A stretch of 64,000 nucleotides of DNA from Microcoleus sp. (GCA_042408215.1 JAYFMW010000005.1:160001-224000), one strand, 5' to 3'. Counted from the stretch's first letter, positions 4,793 through 19,857 are shown. A program made the numbers and translations. The notes: generated from the letters alone by a model not told the origin.

Positions 4793-5002
4793 ATGAGTAC
4801 AGAAGACAGAGCGAAGGCGATCGGCAAAAATGTAGAAGGTAAGGTTCAGGAAATAGTCGGGAATATCACTGGTAGCAAAAAAGACCAGGTTGAAGGTCAA
4901 GCAAAACAAGCCGAAGCTGCCGCCCGCCACGCAGCAGAAGATGTGAAAGATGCGGTAAAAAATCTGAGTGACAAGGCTAAAAGGGCGATCGACAAATTGT
5001 AG
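4793..5002 (+). CDS. csbD: CsbD-like stress protein
   Basis: EGKVQE.VG..TG.....EGQAKQ pattern. Confidence 0.85.
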   Translation: MSTEDRAKAIGKNVEGKVQEIVGNITGSKKDQVEGQAKQAEAAARHAAEDVKDAVKNLSDKAKRAIDKL

Positions 5003-5095
5003 AAACCGCGCTTTACCCAATCCTGGCTAATAGAATTCGCTTCCTATCAAATCCTGTGTCATCAATTGGGTTTGATATGATTTATTTTTGGGCTT

Positions 5096-5123
5096 TGCAT
5101 AAAACTGGCTGACTCCTGCGACA
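5096..5123 (+). promoter_or_regulatory. Putative alternative-sigma promoter, copy 1 (TGCATAA-N16-CGACA)
   Basis: Ends 30 nt before ATG 5154; motif shared by four units of this locus. Confidence 0.65.
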
Positions 5124-5153
5124 TCTCTTCAAAAGCGCAGTGGAGAAGCCCCT

Positions 5154-5876
5154 ATGATGATTAATTATACAACTGAATCGGAGAAAGCTTGGTACAAGTC
5201 TCCTGCAATTGTAGCTGCTGTAGGTGTCAGCGCGATCGCCCTTGGAGCATTCATTTACCCAGAACTCGCCAGTCAACCCATTGTACACTACCGCGCTGAC
5301 GATAATTCGCTGTCAGCAGATCGCTACACCTTACAGCGACAATTGCACTGTCAAATCAGCAGCCAACATTATAAACCGGGAGATACCGCTGTCAGCATTC
5401 CGTTTGCCGATCGCGCCGTCGTCACTAAAACCATCTCCATTGCTAACAGTTTAACCCTGATGGGGGAATGTCAACACAACGGGCGAGCCATCACCAACAA
5501 ACAACCCGGAACCTCTCTAACAGCCTTGTTAGAACGCAGTCAATCTGCCATTCAACAACAACATCAAACCAACAACAAAAATCCAGGCATCCTCACCATT
5601 GTAGCAAACGACTTTGAGCCGCGTCAAGGGGATCATGGTATAGATTTTAGTCGAGTCAAAACCCTCGTTGACGACATCGAAAAACAGGGAGTAGTTATCT
5701 CATTTATCGTGCCACAAGGGCAATTATACGAAGACTTGACTAACCAGTTGAGCGGCAAAGAGAGTGTCTGCGTTTTAGATGAAAGCAAAGACGAAGATGC
5801 AGTAAGGCGATCGATGAATCCCTGCATTGATGCAGCCTTCACCCAAGCCAGAAAAATGACACCTAAATCAAATTAA
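5154..5876 (+). CDS. Membrane-anchored vWA-like protein
   Basis: N-terminal TM helix; DNSLS fits the DxSxS MIDAS motif, with later PGTS (T) and IVAND (D). Confidence 0.6.
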   Translation: MMINYTTESEKAWYKSPAIVAAVGVSAIALGAFIYPELASQPIVHYRADDNSLSADRYTLQRQLHCQISSQHYKPGDTAVSIPFADRAVVTKTISIANSLTLMGECQHNGRAITNKQPGTSLTALLERSQSAIQQQHQTNNKNPGILTIVANDFEPRQGDHGIDFSRVKTLVDDIEKQGVVISFIVPQGQLYEDLTNQLSGKESVCVLDESKDEDAVRRSMNPCIDAAFTQARKMTPKSN

Positions 5877-5980
5877 TTGGGTTGGTAATAAGGACTTTAT
5901 TCCTTCTTGTGAGGACTAAAGTCCTGACTACGAACCTAGGATTTCCTGTATCTACAACAACAGTAAAAGCAGTTCAGTTA

Positions 5981-6018
5981 CATCCGTTAAATCCGTTACA
6001 AAATCCGCTGCCGAACTT
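5981..6018. repeat. Dispersed ~40-bp repeat CATCCGTTAAATCCGTTAC..AATCCG.TGCCGAACTT
   Basis: Other copies at ~62049-62086 and, reverse complemented, ~40339-40376. Confidence 0.75.
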
Positions 6019-6032
6019 TTTTCCCCGAATTC

Positions 6033-6059
6033 TGCATAAACCTTCAACCCGTAGCGACA
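6033..6059 (+). promoter_or_regulatory. Putative alternative-sigma promoter, copy 2 (TGCATAA-N15-CGACA)
   Basis: Ends 26 nt before GTG 6086. Confidence 0.65.
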
Positions 6060-6085
6060 CTATCTTATAAAGCAAAAAAATCAAG

Positions 6086-7375
6086 GTGACACCAATGAAT
6101 TCTATCACCCATCATAACCACAATTCTGCCGCCAGCATCGTAGCATGGCAATACCTGCACCAAGAATTGACAGCCCTACTCCCCGAACAAATCAAATCCC
6201 AAATGAGTCAGCGGGAAAAACGATACGCAGAAGGAGAAAAAGCCAAAACACGGATTAACGACTTAACCCCTTTAGCGAGGCGCAACCCCAACCCGGAAAC
6301 CAAGAAAATAGTCAATATTTCGGTAGGGTTAATCAGCGCGATTACCTTCAGTGCGGGAGCGCGAATATTGACTTCCGGCTTTGGAAGTATGAGCATTCCA
6401 GCGAGTTTGTTCATCGGGGGCGCAGCGGGGGTAGTCGCGGATAAAAAAGTGATGAAAGTCATGGAGCATTCTCGCAAGAAAAGCAGCACCACGCAAGCAT
6501 TGCAAGATATCCAAAAACAAAAACAGGCTCATCCCGCTAAAAATCCATTTGGCGAACTTTATTACGAATCTCAAACCGCCTTAGTGCTACAAGTCGAAGG
6601 TCAATATTTGAATAAACTACCCTTTAGCGATGTCGGGTTGGCGCTGGGATTGAGCGGCACCGAATATGCGATGTCTCTGGGGATTGTGATCGGGTTGGGA
6701 TTACCGGGGGGAATTCTTTTAAATGCGATCGCAGCCAGCCTACCCGTAGTAATGTTATGGGGAGCAGCATCACTGCAAAACGACGCCTTTGAAATGCCCG
6801 GACACGCCCGTGCCCTAATCGGACAATACGAAAGCAGCCTCCCCCAAGAAATCACCGAATTGGAGGCAAATCAGATTGCCGGAATCGACGAAGAAGTTGC
6901 TCTGAAACAGCGAGAACTCGCCTATGAGCAAGCCTTAAACCTGCGTCGTGAAAAATTTGTCAGCGAAGGCGATACCAGCGGGCGATTGAAGAATTGGGAC
7001 ATGGTAGAAGCTGACTTTCAAATCGGGTGGTACGAGAAAGAAAAGCATCAAATCGAAAAAGACCAGGACGAAAAACGAGAACAGCGTTACTTTAAGTTTA
7101 AAGCCGATGTTGCTCAAATTGCCGAACAGCATCAACCCCCCGCCGGCACTTACTCACCGGAACAAATGGCCCAGTTAAAAAATGAATGGGTGGAAGTCCA
7201 AGAACAAAAATTGAAGGAAATTCTCGCCCATGACATTCAGTGGTTGAATCACAAATACGGCAACAAAATCAAGCATTACGAGGAGGAAATCACCACAGCG
7301 CGACAGCGTTACGCAGAAGCCGAATCTCGGTGGCGGCAAGAACGACATTCTAATGCAATGAAGGATACTGTTTGA
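6086..7375 (+). CDS. Hypothetical membrane protein with Gly-rich hydrophobic hairpins and a C-terminal coiled coil
   Basis: Two Gly/Ala-rich hydrophobic helix pairs followed by an E/K/Q-rich helical C-terminus; 429 aa intact. Confidence 0.75.
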   Translation: MTPMNSITHHNHNSAASIVAWQYLHQELTALLPEQIKSQMSQREKRYAEGEKAKTRINDLTPLARRNPNPETKKIVNISVGLISAITFSAGARILTSGFGSMSIPASLFIGGAAGVVADKKVMKVMEHSRKKSSTTQALQDIQKQKQAHPAKNPFGELYYESQTALVLQVEGQYLNKLPFSDVGLALGLSGTEYAMSLGIVIGLGLPGGILLNAIAASLPVVMLWGAASLQNDAFEMPGHARALIGQYESSLPQEITELEANQIAGIDEEVALKQRELAYEQALNLRREKFVSEGDTSGRLKNWDMVEADFQIGWYEKEKHQIEKDQDEKREQRYFKFKADVAQIAEQHQPPAGTYSPEQMAQLKNEWVEVQEQKLKEILAHDIQWLNHKYGNKIKHYEEEITTARQRYAEAESRWRQERHSNAMKDTV

Positions 7376-7377
7376 GA

Positions 7378-7600
7378 CTGAAACCCTCTGTATCTCTCGT
7401 TTGTATCGCAGTCTCGATCCCCCTAAATCCCCCTTAAGAAGGGGGACTTTGATCCGAATTCTTGATCTCCCCCGTGTTTTCTCAACAGACTTTGAACTGC
7501 TCTTGTCCCCCCCTTCTTAAGGGGGGCTAGGGGGGATCTGGCCTTAATCGCCAAACAGCAGTCTCTGATTCGGTTTGACCTTAAATTGATCCCAATGGGC
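7378..7600. mobile_element. Degenerate MITE copy, same family as 3458-3773
   Basis: GATCCCCCTAAATCCCCCTTAAGAAGGGGGACTTT core, AAACAGCAGTCTCTGA, and a degenerate right TIR TTAAATTGATCCCAATGGGC. Confidence 0.65.
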
Positions 7601-7653
7601 GCAGTACGATGTCCTCGCATCAGGGGCACCGCAAAAAAAACTTTCCCTAAATC

Positions 7654-7680
7654 TGCATAAACCCCCCAACCCCTGCGACA
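7654..7680 (+). promoter_or_regulatory. Putative alternative-sigma promoter, copy 3 (TGCATAA-N15-CGACA)
   Basis: Ends 29 nt before ATG 7710, the likely start of the sigma-like gene. Confidence 0.65.
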
Positions 7681-7709
7681 TCAAAGTATCAACACCCAAA
7701 AACTAGACT

Positions 7710-8646
7710 ATGACGAGACATGATACCCCCGTCGAACCCTTACCAGGCTTGGTTCCTGTAGCCACAAACTTCAACTTGTGGCTGCACCTTCGGAACTCAA
7801 GCCGATTTCCTTGACTTTGTTCTTCCTGGCACGTTACAGCGCTATTTTCTCTGGGATAATTGAACTATCCCGACGTGATAGCAACGTGCCTGTGAACACC
7901 GACGAACGGAGTTACGCGAACTTCTACAACTCTTGAAAGACTCCCAAGCACGGGGAGTCAGAAACACAGAAAGATTCAAAAGATCAATTGTCTAACTCGA
8001 TTCCCGACTCTTGCCCGGAAGTCGCAAATATCGCGACGACCTGAGTCCTACAGATCTGATTTTGATGGACGCACTCCGAATGACGGCCTATGGCGGTTTT
8101 TCAAAACGCTGCCGATATTTTTCGGGACAATTGACCTCGATAATCCACTCGCTGATGATGTCTTGCGAACCAGAGCTGGTTAAGCGGTTGTAATAAACTC
8201 AATATCGCGACTGATTGCAAGATATGCGACGCAGGCACAGAAACATCAGATTTGTCCATTTGGACGAACCTACAAGCGAAGAAAATGCCACAACCAAATC
8301 AGATATTACACCCGATCCGCGACCAGAACCGCCCATCGATTATGTAGAACAGCAAGAGCGTTTTCTGCAACTAAAAGCTTATTTAGAGCAAGACCCGGAA
8401 CAAAGATTGTCTAACTGCTGTACGCGGAAATACCCGATTTGTAACTGTTGGGAACTGATTAAGCGAAGGGTATTAACATCCCCGCCCCAGACCTTTAAAC
8501 AAATCAAAAAAGACCTGGATATTCCCCTCGATAATATTACCAGACTTTGGTACAATAAGTGTGTCCCTCTGTTGGCAGAGATAGCTCAACAAATTGGCTA
8601 CGAAATCGAACCCAGAAGATTACAACAAAAAGAGGATGAGGAATAA
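7710..8646 (+). CDS. Divergent sigma-70-like factor; 5' half broken by frameshifts and stops as given
   Basis: The 8215-8646 part (YLEQDPEQRL..C..RKYP.CNC..L..R.....PP...QI..DL.IP...I..LW..KC.PLL) resembles cyanobacterial sigma-like proteins found next to DUF1822, with a region-4-like HTH. The start coordinate is inferred. Confidence 0.55.
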
Positions 8647-8648
8647 TC

Positions 8649-9490
8649 ATGACTAACACTACTGAACATTGTATCACAATTCGTTTTCAGAAACAAGACT
8701 GCGAGTTGGCGGAAAAATTCGCCGCTTCTCAACCGAATGCTGAGAAAAATCAACAAGTTTATCGCAATACTCTGGCTGTTTTAGCGGTGAACACCTTTGT
8801 GCAAGAATTACGTTATGAAACTGACTTGGATGCTGGCGAAAGTTGGCATCCGGTGCTCAGAATGTTTCATAATGTTGCTGATTTAGTCTTACCGGGAATT
8901 GGCAAGATTGAATGCTGTCCGGTTCTACTTGGAGAAACGGCGATTTCTCTGCCGGAAGTGCGCGAAAATCGCATTGCTTATATCGCAGTTCAGTTTGCGG
9001 AACCTTTCGATAAAGTCAAACTTTTGGGCTTTATTCCGGCTGTGGAAATTGTGGAGGAAACTGAAGCGATTTCTCTCACTAATCTCCAACCAATTGAGGA
9101 ATTGTTGGATTATTTGGATCGAATTGAGTTGGGAATTCCGGTGGCGCAAGTTCTACTTGAAGAAGTGCTATCGGATTTGGCAGAAGATGACCCCGTACAA
9201 GCACAAGCACGAGTTCGGGAGATTTTCCAAAACCAATCTATTGCTGAAATTGTGGCAATTTTGAATCAAGTTTATCGCAGCAACGAGAAATCTGACTGGG
9301 GATATGAAGGGGGGAAGGCTTTAGCGGGAATTGGTGCTAGCAGTGGAGGTTTGGGAGGTATAAATCGATGTTTATCAATTCATCAATCTTCACCGGGGTG
9401 GTTGAGGAGGGTGTGAAAGTGGAACTGAATATAATTGCTGAAGATTTGTTGGAAAAGTTGGCTGAGATTTGGGGAGATGGTGATGAATAA
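8649..9490 (+). CDS. DUF1822 family protein (frameshift near the 3' end)
   Basis: QQVYRNTLAVLAV, ADLVLPGIGKIECCPV, RIAYIAVQ and LLGF motifs. Another frame continues ...ELNIIAEDLLEKLAEIWGDGDE to TAA at 9490. Confidence 0.8.
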
Positions 9491-9499
9491 TCTGGGGAG

Positions 9500-9760
9500 T
9501 CGGTGGGTAGCGAGAAACCGGGTTTCTACGAGTTTTTTAGTTGAGTGACGAGAAATCTCCCAAGAAACCCGGTTTCTGGGGAGTCGATGGGTAGCGAGAA
9601 ACCGGGTTTCTACGAGTTTTTTGGTTGAGTGACGAGAAATCTCCCAAGAAACCCGGTTTCTGAGACAAGGTGGGTAGCGAGAAACCGGGTTTCTACGAGT
9701 TTTTTGGTTGAGTGACGAGAAATCTCCCAAGAAACCCGGTTTCTGAGAGTCGGTGGGTAA
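9500..9760. repeat. Three tandem copies of an ~85-bp AGAAACCGGGTTTCT...AGAAACCCGGTTTCT palindromic REP-like unit
   Basis: Directly visible; single relatives at ~1786-1855, 14472-14535, 23795-23860 and 46572-46606. Confidence 0.85.
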
Positions 9761-9786
9761 TTGCTGAAAACATTTTTCGGGAATTT

Positions 9787-9814
9787 TGCATAATTTTCCC
9801 CCAAATTGCCGATA
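9787..9814 (+). promoter_or_regulatory. Putative alternative-sigma promoter, copy 4 (TGCATAA-N16-CGATA)
   Basis: Ends 33 nt before ATG 9848 of the TPR-CHAT gene. Confidence 0.55.
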
Positions 9815-9847
9815 CATATATATACACAGAATCAAAGGTAAACTCCA

Positions 9848-12800
9848 ATGGACGAACAACGCCTCGCCGCCTATCTCCAACTGATTCAAGCCCTGCTTGA
9901 GTGCCCTAGCGGTGAAGAAGATGATATTCTCGAACGCCCATCGAGAGTTAGTTGATGCGGATTTTGTGCAAGTCATGGAAGCAGTGGCGGCGAATATGGC
10001 AGAAAAGGGCGAATCCAATGCAGGTTGGTTGCAGAATCTGGCGGCACAATTGGCAAATTATGTCCGCAGTACAGCAACTCCTGAAGAGTATTTATCTTTC
10101 TTGATGGAGGTGTTGCAAGCAACGCATGAAAGTCGACGGAAATCCTCAAGTTGTCTATCCTATTTTACAACAAAACTTCGACAAATTGGATTTGAATTTT
10201 GCTCAAATATTGCAAGCTTGGGCCACATCCACATTCACAGAAGTTACCTCAGAACAAGCTGCATCATCGCAGCAGTTATTGGCAATTTTGGCAACTTAAT
10301 TCAGCAGTTTCCCCTGGGGCGGCGGGCATGGAATTTAGAAATAGGTATTGCTTGTTATACCGCAGCCTTAAAAGTCTATACCCGCGAGAATTATCCCGAA
10401 TATTGGGCAACGACTCAAAATTATTTGGGGGCTGCTTATAGTAACAGAATAGAAGGAGTCAGGGCGGCGAATATTGAAGAGGCGATCGCCTGTTATACCG
10501 CAGCCTTAGAAGTCTATACCCGCGAGAATTATCCCGAAGATTGGGCTATGACTCAAAATAATTTGGGGATTGCCTATAGTGACAGAATAGAGGGAGTCAG
10601 GGCGGCGAATATTGAACAGGCGATCGCCTGTTATCGGGAAGCTTTAAAAGTCCGTACCCCTGAGAATTATCCCGAAAAATGGGCTATGACTCAAAATAAT
10701 TTGGGGATGCCTATAGTGACAGAATAGAGGGAGTCAGGGCGGCGAATATTGAAGAGGCAATTTCCTGTTATCGGGAAGCTTTAAAAGTCCGTACCCCTGA
10801 GAATTATCCCGAAGATTGGGCTATGACTCAAAATAATTTGGGGGCTGCCTATAGTGACAGAATAGAGGGACTCAGGGCGGCGAATATAGAACTTGCGATC
10901 GCCTGTTATCGGGAAGCTTTAAAAGTCCGTACCCCTGAGAATTATCCCGAATATTGGGCTATGACTCAAAATAATTTGGGGAATGCCTATAGTAACAGAA
11001 TAGAGGGAGTCAGGGCGGCGAATATTGAACAGGCGATCGCCTGTTATCGGGAAGCTTTAATAGTCCGTACCCCTGAGAATTATCCCGAAAAATGGGCAGG
11101 GACTCAAAATAATTTGGGGGCTGCCTATAGTGACAGAATAGAGGGACTCAGGGCGGCGAATATAGAACTTGCGATCGCCTGTTATCGGGAAGCTTTAAAA
11201 GTCCGTACCCCTGAGAATTATCCCGAAGATTGGGCAGGGACTCAAAATAATTTGGGGGCTGCCTATAGAGACAGAATAGAGGGAGTCAGGGCGGCGAATA
11301 TAGAACTTGCGATCGCCTGTTATCGGGAAGCTTTAAAAGTCCGTACCCCTGAGAATTATCCCGAACAATGGGCAGATGACTCAAAATAATTTGGGGAATG
11401 CCTATAGAAACAGAATAGAGGGAGTCAGGGCGGCGAATATAGAACTTGCGATCGCCTGTTATCGGGAAGCCTTAATAGTCCGTACCCCTGAAAATTATCC
11501 CGAACAATGGGCTATGACTCAAAATGGTTTGGGGAATGCCTATGGTAACAGAATAGAGGGAGTCAGGGCGGCGAATATTGAAGAGGCAATTTCCTGTTAT
11601 CGGGAAGCTTTAAAAGTCTATACCCGCAAGGATTATCCCGAAGATTGGGCTATGACTCAAAATAATTTGGGGGCTGCCTATAGTGACAGAATAGAGGGAG
11701 TCAGGGCGGTGAATATTGAAGAGGCAATTTCCTGTTATCGGGAAGCTTTAATAGTCTATACCCGCAAGGATTATCCCGAAGATTGGGCAATGACTCAAAA
11801 TAATTTGGGGACTGCCTATAGTAACAGAATAGAGGGAGTCAGGGCGGCGAATATAGAACTTGCGATCGCCTGTTATCGGGAAGCTTTAATAGTCTATACC
11901 CCCGAAAATTATCCCGAAAATTGGGCTATGACTCAAAATAATTTGGGGGTTGCCTATAGAGACAGAATAGAGGGAGTCAGGGCGGCGAATATAGAACTTG
12001 CGATCGCCTGTTATCGGGAAGCTTTAATAGTCTATACCCCCGAGAATTATCCCGAACAATGGGCTATGACTCAAAATAATTTGGGGGTTGCCTATAGAGA
12101 CAGAATAGAGGGAGTCAGGGCGGCGAATATAGAACTTGCGATCGCCTGTTATCGGGAAGCTTTAATAGTCCGTACCCCCGAGAATTATCCCGAACATTGG
12201 GCAACGACTCAAAATAATTTGGGGATTGCCTATAAAAACAGAATAGAGGGAGTCAGGGCCGAGAATATAGAAGAGGCAATTTCCTGTTACCGCTTAGCCT
12301 TAGAAATTCGCACTCCTACTGCTTTCCCTTTAGACTGCTTGCAATCAGGTAGAAACCTCGGCAATACCGCTTTCACTGCTGGCTTCTGGGACATCGCCCT
12401 GGAAGGATTCGAGAAAGCAATTCAAGCAGTAGAAAAAAGCAGAAGTTGGGCAACTTCCGACGATATCCGCCAACAGATGATAGCAGAATCCATCGGTGTT
12501 TACGAAAAGGCAATTCAAGCTGCTGTCAACAACAACCAACTGGAAAAAGCCATAGAATATTGCGACAGAACCCGTGCTCAGCGGTTAGTGGATTTAATGC
12601 ACAGCAATGACTTGTATGCTAGCGGCGAAATTCCGCCCGCAGTGCAAAAGTATTTGGATGAATTTGAAGCGAAGCAGCAGGAAATTGACGCAGAAGTCGA
12701 ACAACTCCGCAATCCATCGGAGGGGAATAAGGGATTAGCTGGTGTGGGGAGTTCGTCGCGGAGTCGGGCGGATACTTCTGCTTACACGAAGAAGATTCAA

Positions 12801-14448
12801 GAATTGGAAGGGGAGAAACAGCAAATCTGGGAAAACATCCGCAGTTTAGATCCAGTTTTAGCGGGACAAGTTCAAGTTGTGCCGATGCAGTTTGCGGCGA
12901 TGCAGCAGTTGATTGATAATTCCCAGACGGCGATTCTCTGTTTTTATACGACGGATGATGACACTCATGTTTTTGTGATTTACAAGGATAAAGCGCCGCA
13001 GATTCACACTTGTCAGGGTGAGGGTTGGGGAAGTTTTCAGAAGTGGATTCGCTGAGAGTTGGTTGTCGCCTTATTTGGAGGATAGGAAAGGTTGGCAGCA
13101 GGGGATGGGTGAGTTTTTGTCTCAGTTGTCGCGGCGGTTGAAGGTTGATGAGTTGATTGGTAATTGTTTGGATGGGATTGAGGAATTGATTGTGATTCCG
13201 CATTTGTATTTGCATCAGATTCCGTTGGCGGCTTTGCCGGTTAATACCCTCGCAACCGAGGAGGGCGGGCACGGGGGCACCGCCCCTACAAATCCAGGGC
13301 TTGAGAGGGGGCTTGGTGTAGAACCCCCCCAACCCCCCCTTGGTGAGGGGGGGCTTAAGACTGTAGAACCCCACCTTGGTAAGGGGGGGCTTAAGAGTGA
13401 GACCCCCCCCCTTGGTGGGGGGGAAGAACCCCCCCAACCCCCCCTTGCTAAGGGGGGGCTTAAGAGTGAGATTTCTGCCCTGACGAAGGAACAAAAACTT
13501 GTTCTTTCTCCCCCCCTTAGCAAGGGGGGGCCGGGGGGGGTTCTTAGCGATTATTTCCTAATTCGTTACATTCCCAGTTGCCGAATTTTGGAGTATTGCA
13601 GTCAACGTCCCACCATTGAATCGCCGAAATACGGGATTGTGGAAAATGCCACGGATGATTTGTACTTCACTCCTTTTGAGTGCGAACAAATTGCCGAAAT
13701 TGTGACGGTAACTGAACGCTTAAAAGGAAGTCAAGAAGCAACAGTCGCCGCCTATCGAAACCTGACCCAAAATGTGAATGTCATCCACTCCAGTCACCAC
13801 GCTGTCTCGCGTTTGGACAATCCTTTAGAATCGCGGTTGTTTTTAGGAGACGGGAGTATCACGTTAGGGGAATTGATGACTCCTGGTTGGCGCTTACCGC
13901 AGTTATCGGATGTGTTTATGTCTTGCTGCGAAACTAATTTAGGAGATACGGAAATTACGGATAATCTGCTGAGTTTGGGTACGGGGTTTTTGTGTGCTGG
14001 AGCTCGCAGTGTGGTGAGCACTTTGTGGGAGGTGGATGATTTTGCTACTTCGTTGTTTTCGATTTTTTACTATCAGTATCGTCGGGAAGGTTTGAGTCGT
14101 CCAGAGGCTTTGTGGCGGGCACAGGTGCGGTTGCGGACGATTTCGGGCGCGGAGTTGGAAGGGCTTTATAAATCGCAAATTGATGCGCTGCTTCCGAAAG
14201 TTATTGGGGATTTAAAATCTCAATTGGCTGTGGTTCAAAAGGACAAAAAGGAGTTGAAAAAGCATCCAAATCGCTCGATCCAGGGAACGGATGAGTTTAA
14301 GAAGTTTAAGGAAATAGTGAAGCAGGAGAATAAGATTCAGGATCGAAAGAAAGGATATGAAAGTTGGAAAACAAATCTTTACACTATGTCAAATCCTTTT
14401 GATGATTTGATTTATTGGTCGGGGTTTATTTGTCAGGGTTTGCATTGA
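9848..14448 (+). CDS. Large TPR-repeat CHAT (caspase/HetF-like) protease, split by about 6 single-base indels
   Basis: Start MDEQRLAAYLQLIQALLECPSGEE; 46-aa TPR units; CHAT motifs IIVIPH-like (LIVIPHLYLHQIP), IHSSHH (His), FMSCCET (Cys), GARSVVSTLWEVDD and YWSGF. Frame changes near 9931, 10134, 10265, 10707, 11375 and 13050. Confidence 0.85.
10340..12324 (+). repeat. About 14 near-identical 138-bp tandem coding repeats (46-aa TPR units)
   Basis: TATCCCGAA recurs about every 138 bp from ~10392 to ~12186. Confidence 0.9.
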
Positions 14449-14550
14449 CAAGAGTTACGCACTCCCACTAAAGAAACCGGGTTTTTTACCAAATCTGCGG
14501 GCTGCGACGAAATATTTTCGTAAAAACCCGGTTTCTGGGCCCCCATCAAG

Positions 14551-14778
14551 TTAAAAATCGGGTTCAGTAGCCAAAAGTTCGATCGACAAATCCATCTTTT
14601 CCTTCCCCCGCGCCAAAAAACTTTCGCACTCCTGCAAACACTCGACAGCCACCGCAAATTGCTCGAAAACCTTTTCTAAAGGCAATTCTCCCGATTCCAC
14701 TCGCTTAATAATTGCTTCTATGCGATCGACTGTTTCTTCATAATTCCAGTCAGACTGGCGCAACTGCGAATCAATCAT
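14551..14778 (-). CDS. xseB: Exodeoxyribonuclease VII small subunit
   Basis: YEE...RIE.I...VESGELPLE pattern; adjacent to xseA. Confidence 0.92.
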
Positions 14779-14783
14779 AACTT

Positions 14784-15945
14784 TTATTCCGCATCCAATA
14801 TTTCTACAATGTTAACTCTCAAAACGCCGCGACTCAACCTCACAGTCAATTCCTCTCCCAATTGCAAACCCTCAGTCGTGCGGGCGATGGTACCGTCATT
14901 TTGTTTAACCGCAGCATAACCTCTTTGCAAAACCGCCGCCGGATTTAATGCGGACAATTTTTGTTGCAGCACTTCTAGTTTACCACTTGCCTGCTGCAAA
15001 GTTCGCGATGTCAAAGGCAATCGTTTTAAGCGATTTTGTAACAGTTGCAAATGCTGTTCTTCCCTCTGAAATCTTCCCCGCACAGCACTTGACAAATCCC
15101 TCGTTCTCTGCTTGTGTTGTTGGTAAATATTTGCTAAAACTGGCACTGCTTGTTCCGCTGCTGCTGTGGGAGTGTGAGCTCGTTTATCTGCTACTAAATC
15201 TGCCAGAGATTCATCTCTTTCGTGCCCGATACCGGTGATAATTGGAATCGCACAATTGACGATCGCCCTGACAACTCTTTCATCATTAAAACAAGCCAAA
15301 TCCTCCGCAGAACCGCCGCCACGGGCTAAAATGATCGCATCGGCCCTACCGTCCAATTCTACAAGGGCGATCGCCCTGACAATGGCAGCAGCAGCCAATT
15401 CTCCCTGCACTCCTGTCGGCGACAGCAACACCCGCAAACCTGGATATCTTTGGGCTAGAGTGCGCTGAATGTCTCCCCAAGCCGCACCGGTATCGGATGT
15501 TACTACGGCGACAATTTGCGGGTGTGGGGGGAGTGGGCGTTTTCGGGCGCGATCGAAAAAACCCTCAGCCTCCAAGCGCGATCGCAATTGCTGCAACCGC
15601 AAAGCTTGTAATCCTTCCCCGGTGGTTAGACATTGGGAAACATTCAACTGGTATTCGCCGCGATTTTTGTAAACCCGGAGGCTTCCCGATACCAGCAATT
15701 GCGCTCCTTTTGTCGGTGTCTGTATTAATTTTTGCCGCTGAGATTTCCAGACTACGCAGCGAATCGCAGCGCTTTTGTCGCGCATCGCACAGGGTGAAAT
15801 AGGTGCCGCTGGGGTGTTCGGAAACGCTGGCTACCTCCCCTGTTACCCAGAGGGATTGCAAGTGGCGATCGCCCTCCAACAAGTCTTGGAGGTATGATGT
15901 TAGTCGAGCCACAGATAAAGCTATGTCGGAAATAGTTGAAGTCAT
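14784..15945 (-). CDS. xseA: Exodeoxyribonuclease VII large subunit (one frameshift at ~15780)
   Basis: LSV..LT.YL, WVTGEV, YFTL.D in one frame, then [12 protein letters not shown] and GIGHERD...PTAAAE in the next. Confidence 0.92.
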
Positions 15946-16037: not shown

Positions 16038-16787
16038 ATGATATCAGATATAACGACTGCAATAAATATGCTCCGCCACGCAGCAACGGCGATCGGTATT
16101 ACCGAGTCAGAAGCCAGGAAATATGGCGACATTCGACACAGAAGAACTTGGTCTTTGGCGATCGAACATCACCTCTCAATGCAAGGAGAAGGCGATCGCC
16201 AAAAATCATCCTTGGTAACTCCCTCTCCCGATTTCTCGAATCTGCACAACCCCTCTCAGGCTTCGGGGAATGTCGGAGAGTCGTCTAAGTATAGTAGCAT
16301 TGATCTAACCGCGAATCAAGGCGAATCTCTGGTCAAAGTCCAGAAGCAAACAGCCACCGTTGTTGCGCCACAACAGCCAGTACAACACCCAGGGCGATCG
16401 TACAATAAAGCCAGCCAGCGCATCAGAAAAGCTAAAGGTTTTGAGCAAGTAGTTCAAAATCATATCAAAGCCTTAAAAGCCGCATCCTCTGTTCCCACAA
16501 ATCAGTCAAATTTGTCGATCGACAATTGGGTTTGTCCTGAGTGTGGGCCGCAAGGTGAAACTAGCTGTAACCTCTGTGCGGGTACGGGAAATGTAGACGA
16601 TATTGCAGCTATTGGATGGACGCTAGCTTATATGGAAATGTTGGGCTGTTCTGCTCGCGAACTAGAACCGATCAGGAGATTTTATCCAGCCTCAAATATT
16701 CTGGAATTGAATCTAAAAGTTTGTGTTGCTATCAAAGAAAGTAGCGAAGTTTTAGCCCGGACTGAAAAATTAGTCATTAGTCATTAG
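16038..16787 (+). CDS. Hypothetical protein with a CxxC...CxxCxGxG zinc-finger-like motif
   Basis: CPECGPQGETSCNLCAGTG; the stop codon lies inside the heptamer repeat. Confidence 0.6.
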   Translation: MISDITTAINMLRHAATAIGITESEARKYGDIRHRRTWSLAIEHHLSMQGEGDRQKSSLVTPSPDFSNLHNPSQASGNVGESSKYSSIDLTANQGESLVKVQKQTATVVAPQQPVQHPGRSYNKASQRIRKAKGFEQVVQNHIKALKAASSVPTNQSNLSIDNWVCPECGPQGETSCNLCAGTGNVDDIAAIGWTLAYMEMLGCSARELEPIRRFYPASNILELNLKVCVAIKESSEVLARTEKLVISH

Positions 16788-17062
16788 TCATTAGTCATTA
16801 GTCATTGGTCATTAGTCATTAGTCATTGGTCATTAGTCATTGGTCATTAGTCATTGGTCATTAGTCATTGGTCATTGGTCATTGGTCATTGGTCATTGGT
16901 CATTGGTCATTAGTCATTAGTCATTGGTCATTGGTCATTGGTCATTGGTCATTGGTCATTAGTCATTAGTCATTGGTCATTAGTCATTGGTCATTGGTCA
17001 TTAGTCATTAGTCATTGGTAATTCGTAATTGGTAATTCGTAATTCGTAATTCGTAATTAGTC
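16770..17062. repeat. STRR heptamer tandem repeat (TT[A/G]GTCA)n grading into (TAATTCG)n
   Basis: More than 30 visible units. Shorter heptamer tracts at ~18438-18509, 22355-22410, 32104-32156, 35655-35686, 45956-45984 and 61919-61970. Confidence 0.95.
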
Positions 17063-17162
17063 ATGAGTTGCTAGTTATTAGTCATGAGTTGCTAGTTATT
17101 AGTCGCGAGCGATCGCAAAGAACAAATAACTAATAACAAATAACTCCTGACCAACCTCAAAA

Positions 17163-18617: not shown

Positions 18618-19857
18618 AGGACACGGCAGTGCCCATTGGTGTCAACTTAAGCTCAAACCCAGTCAGAGACTGCTGTTTGACTATTAAATCTAGATCCCCC
18701 CTAGCCCCCCTTAAGAAGGGGGGGACAGGAGTCTTCTCAAAGTCCCCCTTCTTAAGGGGGATTTAGGGGGATCTAGACTTAGGTAAAAGCAAGAGATACC
18801 AAGGGTTTCAGGCTTAAGTTGACACCTATGGGCACCCGAAAAGTGTCCCTACCGTGATTAATTGTAGGGACACTCAAGCGTGCCCATTGGTGTCAACTTA
18901 ACGTTAAACCCAGTCACAGATTGCTGTTTGACCATTAAGCCTAGATCCCCCCTAGCCCCCCTTAAGAAGGGGGGGACAGGAGTCTTCTCAAAGTCCCCCT
19001 TCTTAAGGGGGATTTAGGGGGATCTAGACTTAGGTAAAAGCAAGAGATACCAAGGGTTTCAGGCTTAAGTTGACACCTATGGGCACCCGAAAAGTGTCCC
19101 TACCGTGATTAATTGTAGGGACACTCAAGCGTGCCCATTGGTGTCAACTTAACGTTAAACCCAGTCACAGATTGCTGTTTGACCATTAAGCCTAGATCCC
19201 CCCTAGCCCCCCTTAAGAAGGGGGGGACAGGAGTCTTCTCAAAGTCCCCCTTCTTAAGGGGGATTTAGGGGGATCTAGACTTAGGTAAAAGCAAGAGATA
19301 CCAAGGGTTTCAGGCTTAAGTTGACACCTATGGGCACCCGAAAAGTGTCCCTACCGTGATTAATTGTAGGGACACTCAAGCGTGCCCATTGGTGTCAACT
19401 TAACGTTAAACCCAGTCACAGATTGCTGTTTGACCATTAAGCCTAGATCCCCCCTAGCCCCCCTTAAGAAGGGGGGGACAGGAGTCTTCTCAAAGTCCCC
19501 CTTCTTAAGGGGGATTTAGGGGGATCTAGACTTAGGTAAAAGCAAGAGATACCAAGGGTTTCAGGCTTAAGTTGACACCTATGGGCACCCGAAAAGTGTC
19601 CCTACCGTGATTAATTGTAGGGACACTCAAGCGTGCCCATTGGTGTCAACTTAACGTTAAACCCAGTCACAGATTGCTGTTTGACCATTAAGCCTAGATC
19701 CCCCCTAGCCCCCCTTAAGAAGGGGGGGACAGGAAGCCTCTTTCAAAGTCCCCCTTCTTAAGGGGGATTTAGGGGGATCTAGACTTAGGTAAAAGCAAGA
19801 GATACCAAGGGTTTCAGGCTTAAGTTGACACCTATGGGCACGCTTGAGTGTCCCTAC
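18618..19857. repeat. Tandem array of five ~189-bp MITE units joined by GTAG-REP hairpins (251-bp period)
   Basis: GGTGTCAACTTAA at 18638, 18889, 19140, 19391 and 19642; linker GTGTCCCTAC-CGTGATTAATT-GTAGGGACAC. Confidence 0.93.

Follow-up and report, generated by a model that had tools for sequence, protein, structure and literature searches.

Gene content of the locus

We analysed 64,000 nucleotides of Microcoleus sp. (GCA_042408215.1), referred to here as the window, which correspond to positions 160001-224000 of contig C5 (JAYFMW010000005.1) in an assembly (G000) totalling 7.36 Mb. Between a CsbD-like gene on one side and xseA on the other, the window carries five genes on the same (+) strand. 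These are a vWA gene encoding 240 aa (5154..5876), a membrane/coiled-coil gene encoding 429 aa (6086..7375), a frameshifted gene for a sigma-70 factor of the extracytoplasmic function (ECF) type (7710..8646), a short DUF1822 gene for a candidate anti-sigma factor (8649..9490), and a TPR-CHAT protease gene (9848..14448) with six 1-bp indels in the assembly. The vWA gene was assigned through ESM Atlas VWA clusters and conservation among homologs, the membrane gene by hydropathy and AlphaFold, the sigma gene through its alleles and the fold of an intact relative (L016), the DUF1822 gene by Pfam, alignment and its exchange together with sigma, and the protease gene by a CHAT Pfam match, repeats and alignment.

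A motif search placed four promoter-like motifs on the same strand: P1 (TGCATAA-N16-CGACA, 5096..5123) 5' of the vWA gene and kept in related loci, P2 (N15, 6033..6059), also present in L017, L024 and L052, P3 (N15, 7654..7680) 5' of the sigma gene, and P4 (TGCATAA-N16-CGATA, 9787..9814) 5' of the TPR-CHAT gene and kept in L015, L017, L018 and L024. The first-pass annotation had listed the same five co-oriented genes and four motifs, all of which stand; its four transcription units are predicted from the motifs alone, and it had overlooked the frameshifts in the sigma, DUF1822 and TPR-CHAT genes (at least eight breaks). Linkage, the motif, folds, catalytic and metal-site residues, the exchange of sigma and DUF1822 segments as a block, and the dispensability of the vWA/membrane pair together incline us to read the locus as an ECF sigma regulon that is gated by a protease, present in filamentous cyanobacteria and similar to HetF-PatU3-HetZ.

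Frameshifts and a mosaic sigma allele in the assembly

Only the vWA and membrane genes are open in the window; the other three can be read only across frames, and as written this copy is not an intact circuit. Compared with intact relatives, the TPR-CHAT gene contains four 1-bp insertions and two 1-bp deletions (at ~9932, 10137, 10265, 10708, 11377 and 13050) and, these shifts aside, no in-frame stop. The DUF1822 frame changes near 9393-9400, while in the sigma gene a +2 shift at ~7787 is followed by about 20 small gaps between 7903 and 8220. Relatives carry two natural sigma alleles: A, with L052 and L024 among the intact loci, and B, with L016 and L051. The window sigma matches allele A over 7900-8220, where it has many surplus bases, and allele B from 8220 on. 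Among the 9-mers in 7900-8220, 95 were found only in A and 10 only in B, the majority matching neither, and several surplus bases of the allele-A stretch agreed by eye with allele B. From an RNA-labelled sequencing run (X12), one contig covered 7809-8144 with 20 gaps and another began at 8220; these contigs fit the presence of both alleles in one sample, and are evidence of neither transcription nor start sites.

We consider that the copy is probably intact in the organism and was scrambled by a mixed-allele or mixed-strain consensus. It is unlikely that the switch is instead a real pseudogene cluster in this strain, a matter separate from the role of the system elsewhere. In favour of decay, the 6.7 kb of the switch contain at least eight breaks, compared with a rate of 0.4-0.7 per 10 kb in the rest of the assembly, and a second G000 copy (C5:495-506 kb) has decayed. 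However, the breaks are indels, mostly insertions, the TPR-CHAT gene is free of nonsense codons, and the sigma and DUF1822 breaks are concentrated where alleles A and B differ. The conserved neighbour xseA also carries a +1 shift, and ordinary orthologues were broken in this assembly at rates of 4/86 and 4/43, compared with 0/22 and 0/21 in controls between two relatives. Counting against the consensus explanation, none of the sequencing runs screened contained the source reads of the assembly or even half of its words, and contigs from four of the 23 listed runs belonged to other strains; because the source reads were not found, real decay retains some weight.

The xseA gene (exonuclease VII large subunit, window 14784-15945) is interrupted near 15781 by one inserted base, which is probably an assembly error. 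The second cassette lies outside the window (G000:C5:495000-506200) and comprises, in decayed form, a TPR-CHAT gene, a variant of the motif, a broken sigma gene, a long DUF1822 gene and an EACC2-type CHAT gene; its vWA gene is interrupted by ~450 bp of unrelated sequence, and of its membrane gene only the last codons are left.

The sigma, DUF1822 and TPR-CHAT proteins

Since three of the genes are broken in the window, protein analysis of these three was carried out on intact relatives, except for scans of the window's open pieces. The proposal had been staked beforehand on a sigma fold at 7710-8646, and an AlphaFold model of the intact allele-B protein of L016 (pLDDT, the predicted local distance difference test, 80.6) contained both sigma2 and sigma4. 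Its best 50 structural matches were mostly sigma factors, aligned over residues 9-120 and 143-239. The sigma2 domains of SigE, SigW and CnrH were matched over residues 4-139 (Z 7.2-7.9) and the sigma4 domains of SigL and SigH over residues 143-239 (Z 7.1-7.4), and the root-mean-square deviation from SigW was 3.1 over 92 residues. At the sequence level, a sigma profile retrieved SigA first (E 0.053), four of 19 family members matched TIGR02937 (best E 1.2e-11; the folded member scored 16.6 bits against a cut-off of 42.9), and the L020 member exceeded the Pfam cut-off for Sigma70_r4_2. The sigma core probably starts at a GTG at 7892. The preceding 60 codons (window 7710-7891) form a conserved hydrophobic extension in Microcoleus-like loci, absent from most distant loci; it may be a pro-sequence, or else a leader that is not translated. 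The large helix-turn-helix (HTH) protein of L019 gave no alignment with the sigma profile (probability 1%).

The window DUF1822 protein matches Pfam PF08852 (E 1.4e-40) in its N-terminal half only. This short protein consists of the N-domain, a Gly-rich linker and an acidic tail, and lacks the C-terminal domain; no hydrophobic segment was found in the DUF1822 proteins, and their profile retrieved no meaningful solved relative. Between alleles, identity was 25-28% for the sigma core and 39-41% for DUF1822 residues 1-75, rising to 89-98% for residues 76-175. On two separate backgrounds the sigma core and DUF1822 1-75 have been exchanged together as a single block, and a tree of either segment divides in the same way. 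Using home-made profiles, DUF1822 length was found to pair with protease type: among 29 DUF1822 genes behind sigma, 12 short ones accompany TPR-CHAT and nine long ones an EACC2-type CHAT, the rest being one split gene with an EACC2-type CHAT and seven genes without a protease within 2.6 kb. The label EACC2-type was given here, with a home-made N-terminus profile, from the description in PMC8195603. In L056 and L057 the DUF1822 N-domain is fused to the TPR region, with an assembly gap between their repeats and CHAT. These comparisons make DUF1822 a candidate anti-sigma factor, supported by the block exchange, the fusions and the length pairing, and suggest that its N-domain serves sigma and its C-terminal part the protease. 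By eye, 22 of 24 DUF1822 rows have a Lys or Arg in the low-complexity linker, the exceptions being the L056 fusion and L061. Genome-wide, G000 gave 33 CHAT and seven DUF1822 matches, and each of the six other DUF1822 genes adjoins a CHAT gene.

The CHAT domain of the fifth protein is secure (E 9.4e-29; PF12770 at 101 bits against a cut-off of 24), and its closest solved relative is Csx29. The His and Cys noted on first inspection are indeed retained, at 13798-13800 and 13927-13929, and in alignment with Csx29 they fall on its HG and AC motifs; 19 listed TPR-CHATs carry SSHHA/SCCE-type catalytic motifs. The TPR region comprises 14 repeats of 138 nt (46 aa). Intact TPR-CHATs mostly have no hydrophobic segment, a few scoring one, and bear no sensor fusion. 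Their CHAT domain is C-terminal, behind the TPRs, and the EACC2-type N-terminus profile matches other CHATs but not these. A role of the TPRs as ligand sensor is pure inference.

The vWA and membrane proteins

The vWA protein has a single N-terminal hydrophobic segment and so would be a membrane-anchored, single-pass protein. Its metal ion-dependent adhesion site (MIDAS) is conserved across 121 homologs (D50 99%, S52 98%, S54 99%, T120 99%, E/D155 100%), and Cys pairs at 66/106 and 206/224 suggest that the domain is extracytoplasmic. ESM Atlas placed the protein with VWA clusters at 0.91-0.93; Pfam gave no match for the window protein, and one homolog matched VWA_2 at E 0.048. Fusion proteins elsewhere (P0131, P0124, P0162, P0169) carry the transmembrane (TM)-vWA domain after a TIR, tubulin-like/HTH or ParA-like module.

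The 429-aa membrane protein is all-helical (AlphaFold pLDDT 86), with hydrophobic hairpins at ~74-117 (weak) and ~183-231 and a C-terminal coiled-coil hairpin. No family was found for it in Pfam, NCBIfam or PADLOC; its best ESM Atlas value was 0.83, to unnamed clusters, and its best Foldseek E was 0.5. The best VIA match (Z 9.4) covered the C-terminal hairpin only, with LXG, WXG100, PspA, Snf7 and others tied, so we read this part as a generic helical hairpin and assign no specific fold. The closest named relatives of the gene (86-94% identity) come mostly from Microcoleus and Tychonema records, and none was found in viral contigs or in plasmids. In six loci (L069, L070, L071, L072, L075 and L079) the gene is naturally split into two or three. 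Two of these, L072 (8817-10939) and L079 (8607-10714), hold the vWA gene with a three-way split membrane gene, without sigma or motif, next to CRISPR genes (RAMP, Cas_APE2256, Csx3, RT-Cas1).

Linkage of the vWA/membrane pair to the triad

The membrane gene was present in nine of 36 same-genus genomes, in 23 of 400 genomes of the order, and in none of 400 in a phylum-wide draw. The vWA gene was found in 19 of the same 400 order genomes, adjoining the membrane gene in 17, and the sigma family in 111. In 12 of the 23, sigma has the membrane gene or part of it as a neighbour; in the other 11 no adjacent sigma was seen, although three of these (G631, G651 and G543) cannot be scored, the region lying at a contig end or outside the comparison. 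The complete set of five is present in families f1, f11, f16, f20 and f55, and in f60 with an EACC2-type CHAT. The first-pass annotation had also made linkage of the pair to the trio in other genomes a deciding point, and this linkage was found in other families.

The pair is nevertheless dispensable. In L112, L113 and L126 it is gone while the triad is intact; what is left of it, its promoter and initial codons, lies 145 bp 5' of the sigma promoter, and remnants in L067, L068, L076 and the second G000 locus point to repeated loss. The triad is likewise intact without the pair in L116, L124, L125, L127 and L128. Conversely, L022, L075 and L078 have the pair beside DUF1822 and an EACC2-type CHAT without this sigma. 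Because the pair has been repeatedly deleted while the triad stays, we regard it as cargo, and an obligatory sensor role is rejected. Calling the two genes effectors, as was first done, accords with this dispensability, and they are putative effectors.

A promoter-like motif shared across the locus

The strict motif has three matches in the 7.36-Mb genome, all at this locus. The form TGCATAA-N15/16-CGAYA has six, four of them here, while the other 34 spacings average 1.03 per spacing. We scored 25 vWA genes, allowing at most one mismatch, and found the motif in 12 of the 14 with an adjacent sigma gene (seven of nine once five close kin of the window are set aside) and in none of the ten without sigma; an extra tandem vWA copy in L020, the remaining gene, lacked it, as did all 236 background windows. 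The motif tracks an adjacent sigma gene, and chance is rejected as its origin. Eight genomes with a sigma-linked membrane gene or fragment had 5, 5, 7, 6, 7, 3, 7 and 5 matches, compared with two each in two genus members without the membrane gene, 0-2 in five genomes without the sigma family, and 1-3 in five with a stand-alone vWA/membrane pair. The downstream box of the motif may resemble the sigma28 -10 element.

The motif also precedes other genes in G645, G715, G605 and G463, including those for a GIY-YIG protein, a NYN protein, EACC2-type CHATs and a small protein encoded upstream of a JAB-ThiF fusion. In L061 (12713-17315), the region immediately 5' of the cassette has three further motifs, which precede genes for a GIY-YIG protein, a type IV coupling protein and a NYN protein; this cluster adjoins a primase-polymerase gene.

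Proposed mechanism and alternatives

Under the protease-gated regulon that we favour, the short DUF1822 protein would hold sigma at rest through its first ~75 residues. A cytoplasmic signal would activate the TPR-CHAT protease, which, by analogy with HetF and PatU3, would cut DUF1822, perhaps after a basic residue in the Gly-rich linker. Once free, sigma would act at TGCATAA-N15/16-CGAYA promoters and transcribe its own operon together with the gene for the protease. It would also transcribe a cargo that can be exchanged, in this case presumably a surface vWA protein and the membrane protein that almost always accompanies it. Because of its patchy presence, the nuclease-type co-regulated genes, the stand-alone pairs next to CRISPR genes (L072, L079) and the known analogues, the system likely serves in conflict, or else in an envelope response.

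Several observations weigh against this reading. The structural matches of sigma are modest (top Z 7.9, all Z under 8; top Foldseek E 0.011), and of the five proteins only TPR-CHAT had PADLOC matches, weak and partial ones. The evidence of the block exchange is weakened because neighbouring genes co-recombine anyway. Since the Gly-rich linker is missing from the L056 and L057 fusions, a basic residue in it is a candidate cut site only, not a general one. The motif was defined on Microcoleus loci, which are kin, and is not found at L069 and L021 (the two misses among the 14), nor at L124, L125, L127 and L128, which have sigma, short DUF1822 and TPR-CHAT; the sigma gene's own motif is usually absent outside Microcoleus-like loci. 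Furthermore, two sigma alleles only ~28% identical stand behind the same motif, which would also fit an outside reader.

The vWA/membrane pair could alternatively be the input, the outer vWA domain binding a ligand via its metal site, the cytoplasmic coiled coil of the membrane protein activating TPR-CHAT and the promoter providing positive feedback. An intact MIDAS and probable disulfides would suit such a receptor, as would a protease lacking both membrane segment and sensor fusion, the receptor-like layout of the TM-vWA fusions, and retention of the pair by DUF1822/EACC2-type CHAT loci devoid of this sigma. We nonetheless hold this to be improbable: eight loci keep the triad intact with the pair absent, and the sigma family occurs in 111 of 400 genomes with the membrane gene adjacent in just 12.

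Slightly less credible still is DUF1822 as a scaffold or adaptor rather than substrate, with a protease that activates itself or cuts the membrane protein or the N-terminal extension of sigma, and with sigma released non-proteolytically. Fusions without the candidate linker and the natural splitting of the membrane gene in six loci would agree with it, and activation by autopeptidase activity has been proposed (PMC8195603). Set against these are the Lys or Arg in nearly all linkers and the three CHAT-sigma systems, characterised or proposed, which operate via an anti-sigma factor.

More speculatively, and with little likelihood in our estimate, the locus could be a CRISPR-free, two-armed immune circuit, in which a single cytoplasmic TPR-CHAT both frees sigma by cutting DUF1822 and clips the coiled-coil hairpin of the sigma-induced membrane protein, arming a membrane effector of unassigned fold that the surface vWA protein aims or gates. 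If so, the cost of such a circuit would account for the recurrent loss of the pair, and the sigma/anti-sigma swaps would reflect an arms race. Least probable of all is that a host-wide factor reads the motif while the local sigma acts on other promoters, for although one motif serves two very different alleles and precedes genes unlinked to the cassette in G645, G463 and G715, its counts are at chance in all five genomes without the sigma family and it is missing from stand-alone vWA pairs.

Other features of the locus

About three tandem repeats of 83-84 nt, found by repeat search, lie between the DUF1822 and protease genes (9497..9759), a site occupied in relatives by other small genes. Small gene pairs are inserted between DUF1822 and TPR-CHAT in L015 (10235-10540), L016 (8036-8419), L017 (10439-11196) and L018 (2286-3130); they presumably resemble PIN-type toxin-antitoxin modules, and had no PADLOC match. 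The same repeat search showed a 36-nt GC-rich repeat insert, in frame, within the CHAT domain (13331..13471). Further along the window are a 7-nt repeat in 48 copies (16769-17104) and a 251-nt repeat in 4.8 copies at 98% identity (18629-19841).

Relation to known systems

Neighbourhoods of ECF sigma, DUF1822 and EACC2-caspase genes in cyanobacteria, with a proposed protease-triggered transcription, were described by Kaur et al. in 2021 (PMC8195603). In both cases ECF sigma and DUF1822 stand beside a caspase-like protease, and the triad core here is a variant of that predicted system. Their proteases, however, have an N-terminal EACC2 and caspase followed by a variable sensor, whereas CHAT here is C-terminal behind TPRs with no sensor fusion, DUF1822 lacks the C-terminal domain, and a promoter motif and vWA/membrane pair are attached. 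Neither the pair nor the motif appeared in the passages or Figure 3 source data of PMC8195603 searched, nor were they described in the literature searched, which left out most subscription papers. The suggestion that the circuit had not been described before therefore fails for the core triad, predicted in 2021, and survives for the TPR-CHAT subtype, the promoter and the vWA/membrane output, which were not found in print.

In HetF-PatU3-HetZ of Anabaena PCC 7120, a CHAT protease acts with an inhibitor encoded with a divergent ECF sigma: HetZ is inhibited by PatU3 (PMC13342950), which HetF cuts after Arg117 (PMC9457339). HetF is membrane-bound with periplasmic TPRs, whereas TPR-CHAT here mostly lacks a hydrophobic segment; HetZ reads TCCGGA-N16/17-TGNA (DIF1), unlike the motif at this locus; and the inhibitor there is PatU3, the candidate inhibitor here DUF1822. 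That system is also a developmental core, in contrast to the patchy cassette described here.

In type III-E CASP (Csx29, Csx30, CASP-sigma), as proposed for this locus, a cytoplasmic TPR-CHAT goes with an anti-sigma factor and a sigma with several binding motifs within its own locus, one target being a membrane protein (PMC10028731). The partner here is DUF1822, however, and TPR-CHAT scored 57.9 bits with the Csx29 model NF041237 against a cut-off of 300. Membership of type III-E is rejected. No cas genes, including Cas7-11, were found among the 12 locus proteins scanned, and no CRISPR array among the repeats of 4900-14700.

DdvA-DdvS of Myxococcus xanthus also pairs an ECF sigma with a TPR-CHAT-tied anti-sigma factor, paralleled by the DUF1822-TPR fusions of L056 and L057, with several promoters in one defence island (PMC11506125). 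DdvA spans the membrane, carries a zinc anti-sigma domain and has its CHAT in the periplasm, unlike DUF1822 and TPR-CHAT here, both without membrane segments. By analogy, the locus would work like all three of these systems, and it is a member of none.

The sigma family is widespread in the order (111 of 400 genomes), and the sigma/DUF1822/caspase module has so far only been predicted. For experiments, this subtype offers two natural alleles whose specificities can be swapped, fusions and deletions that arose naturally, a promoter recognisable in the DNA sequence, and candidates for both the sigma-binding segment (DUF1822 1-75) and the cut site (an Arg). The unnamed vWA and membrane pair has either protease switches or type III CRISPR genes for neighbours and could represent a new conflict module.

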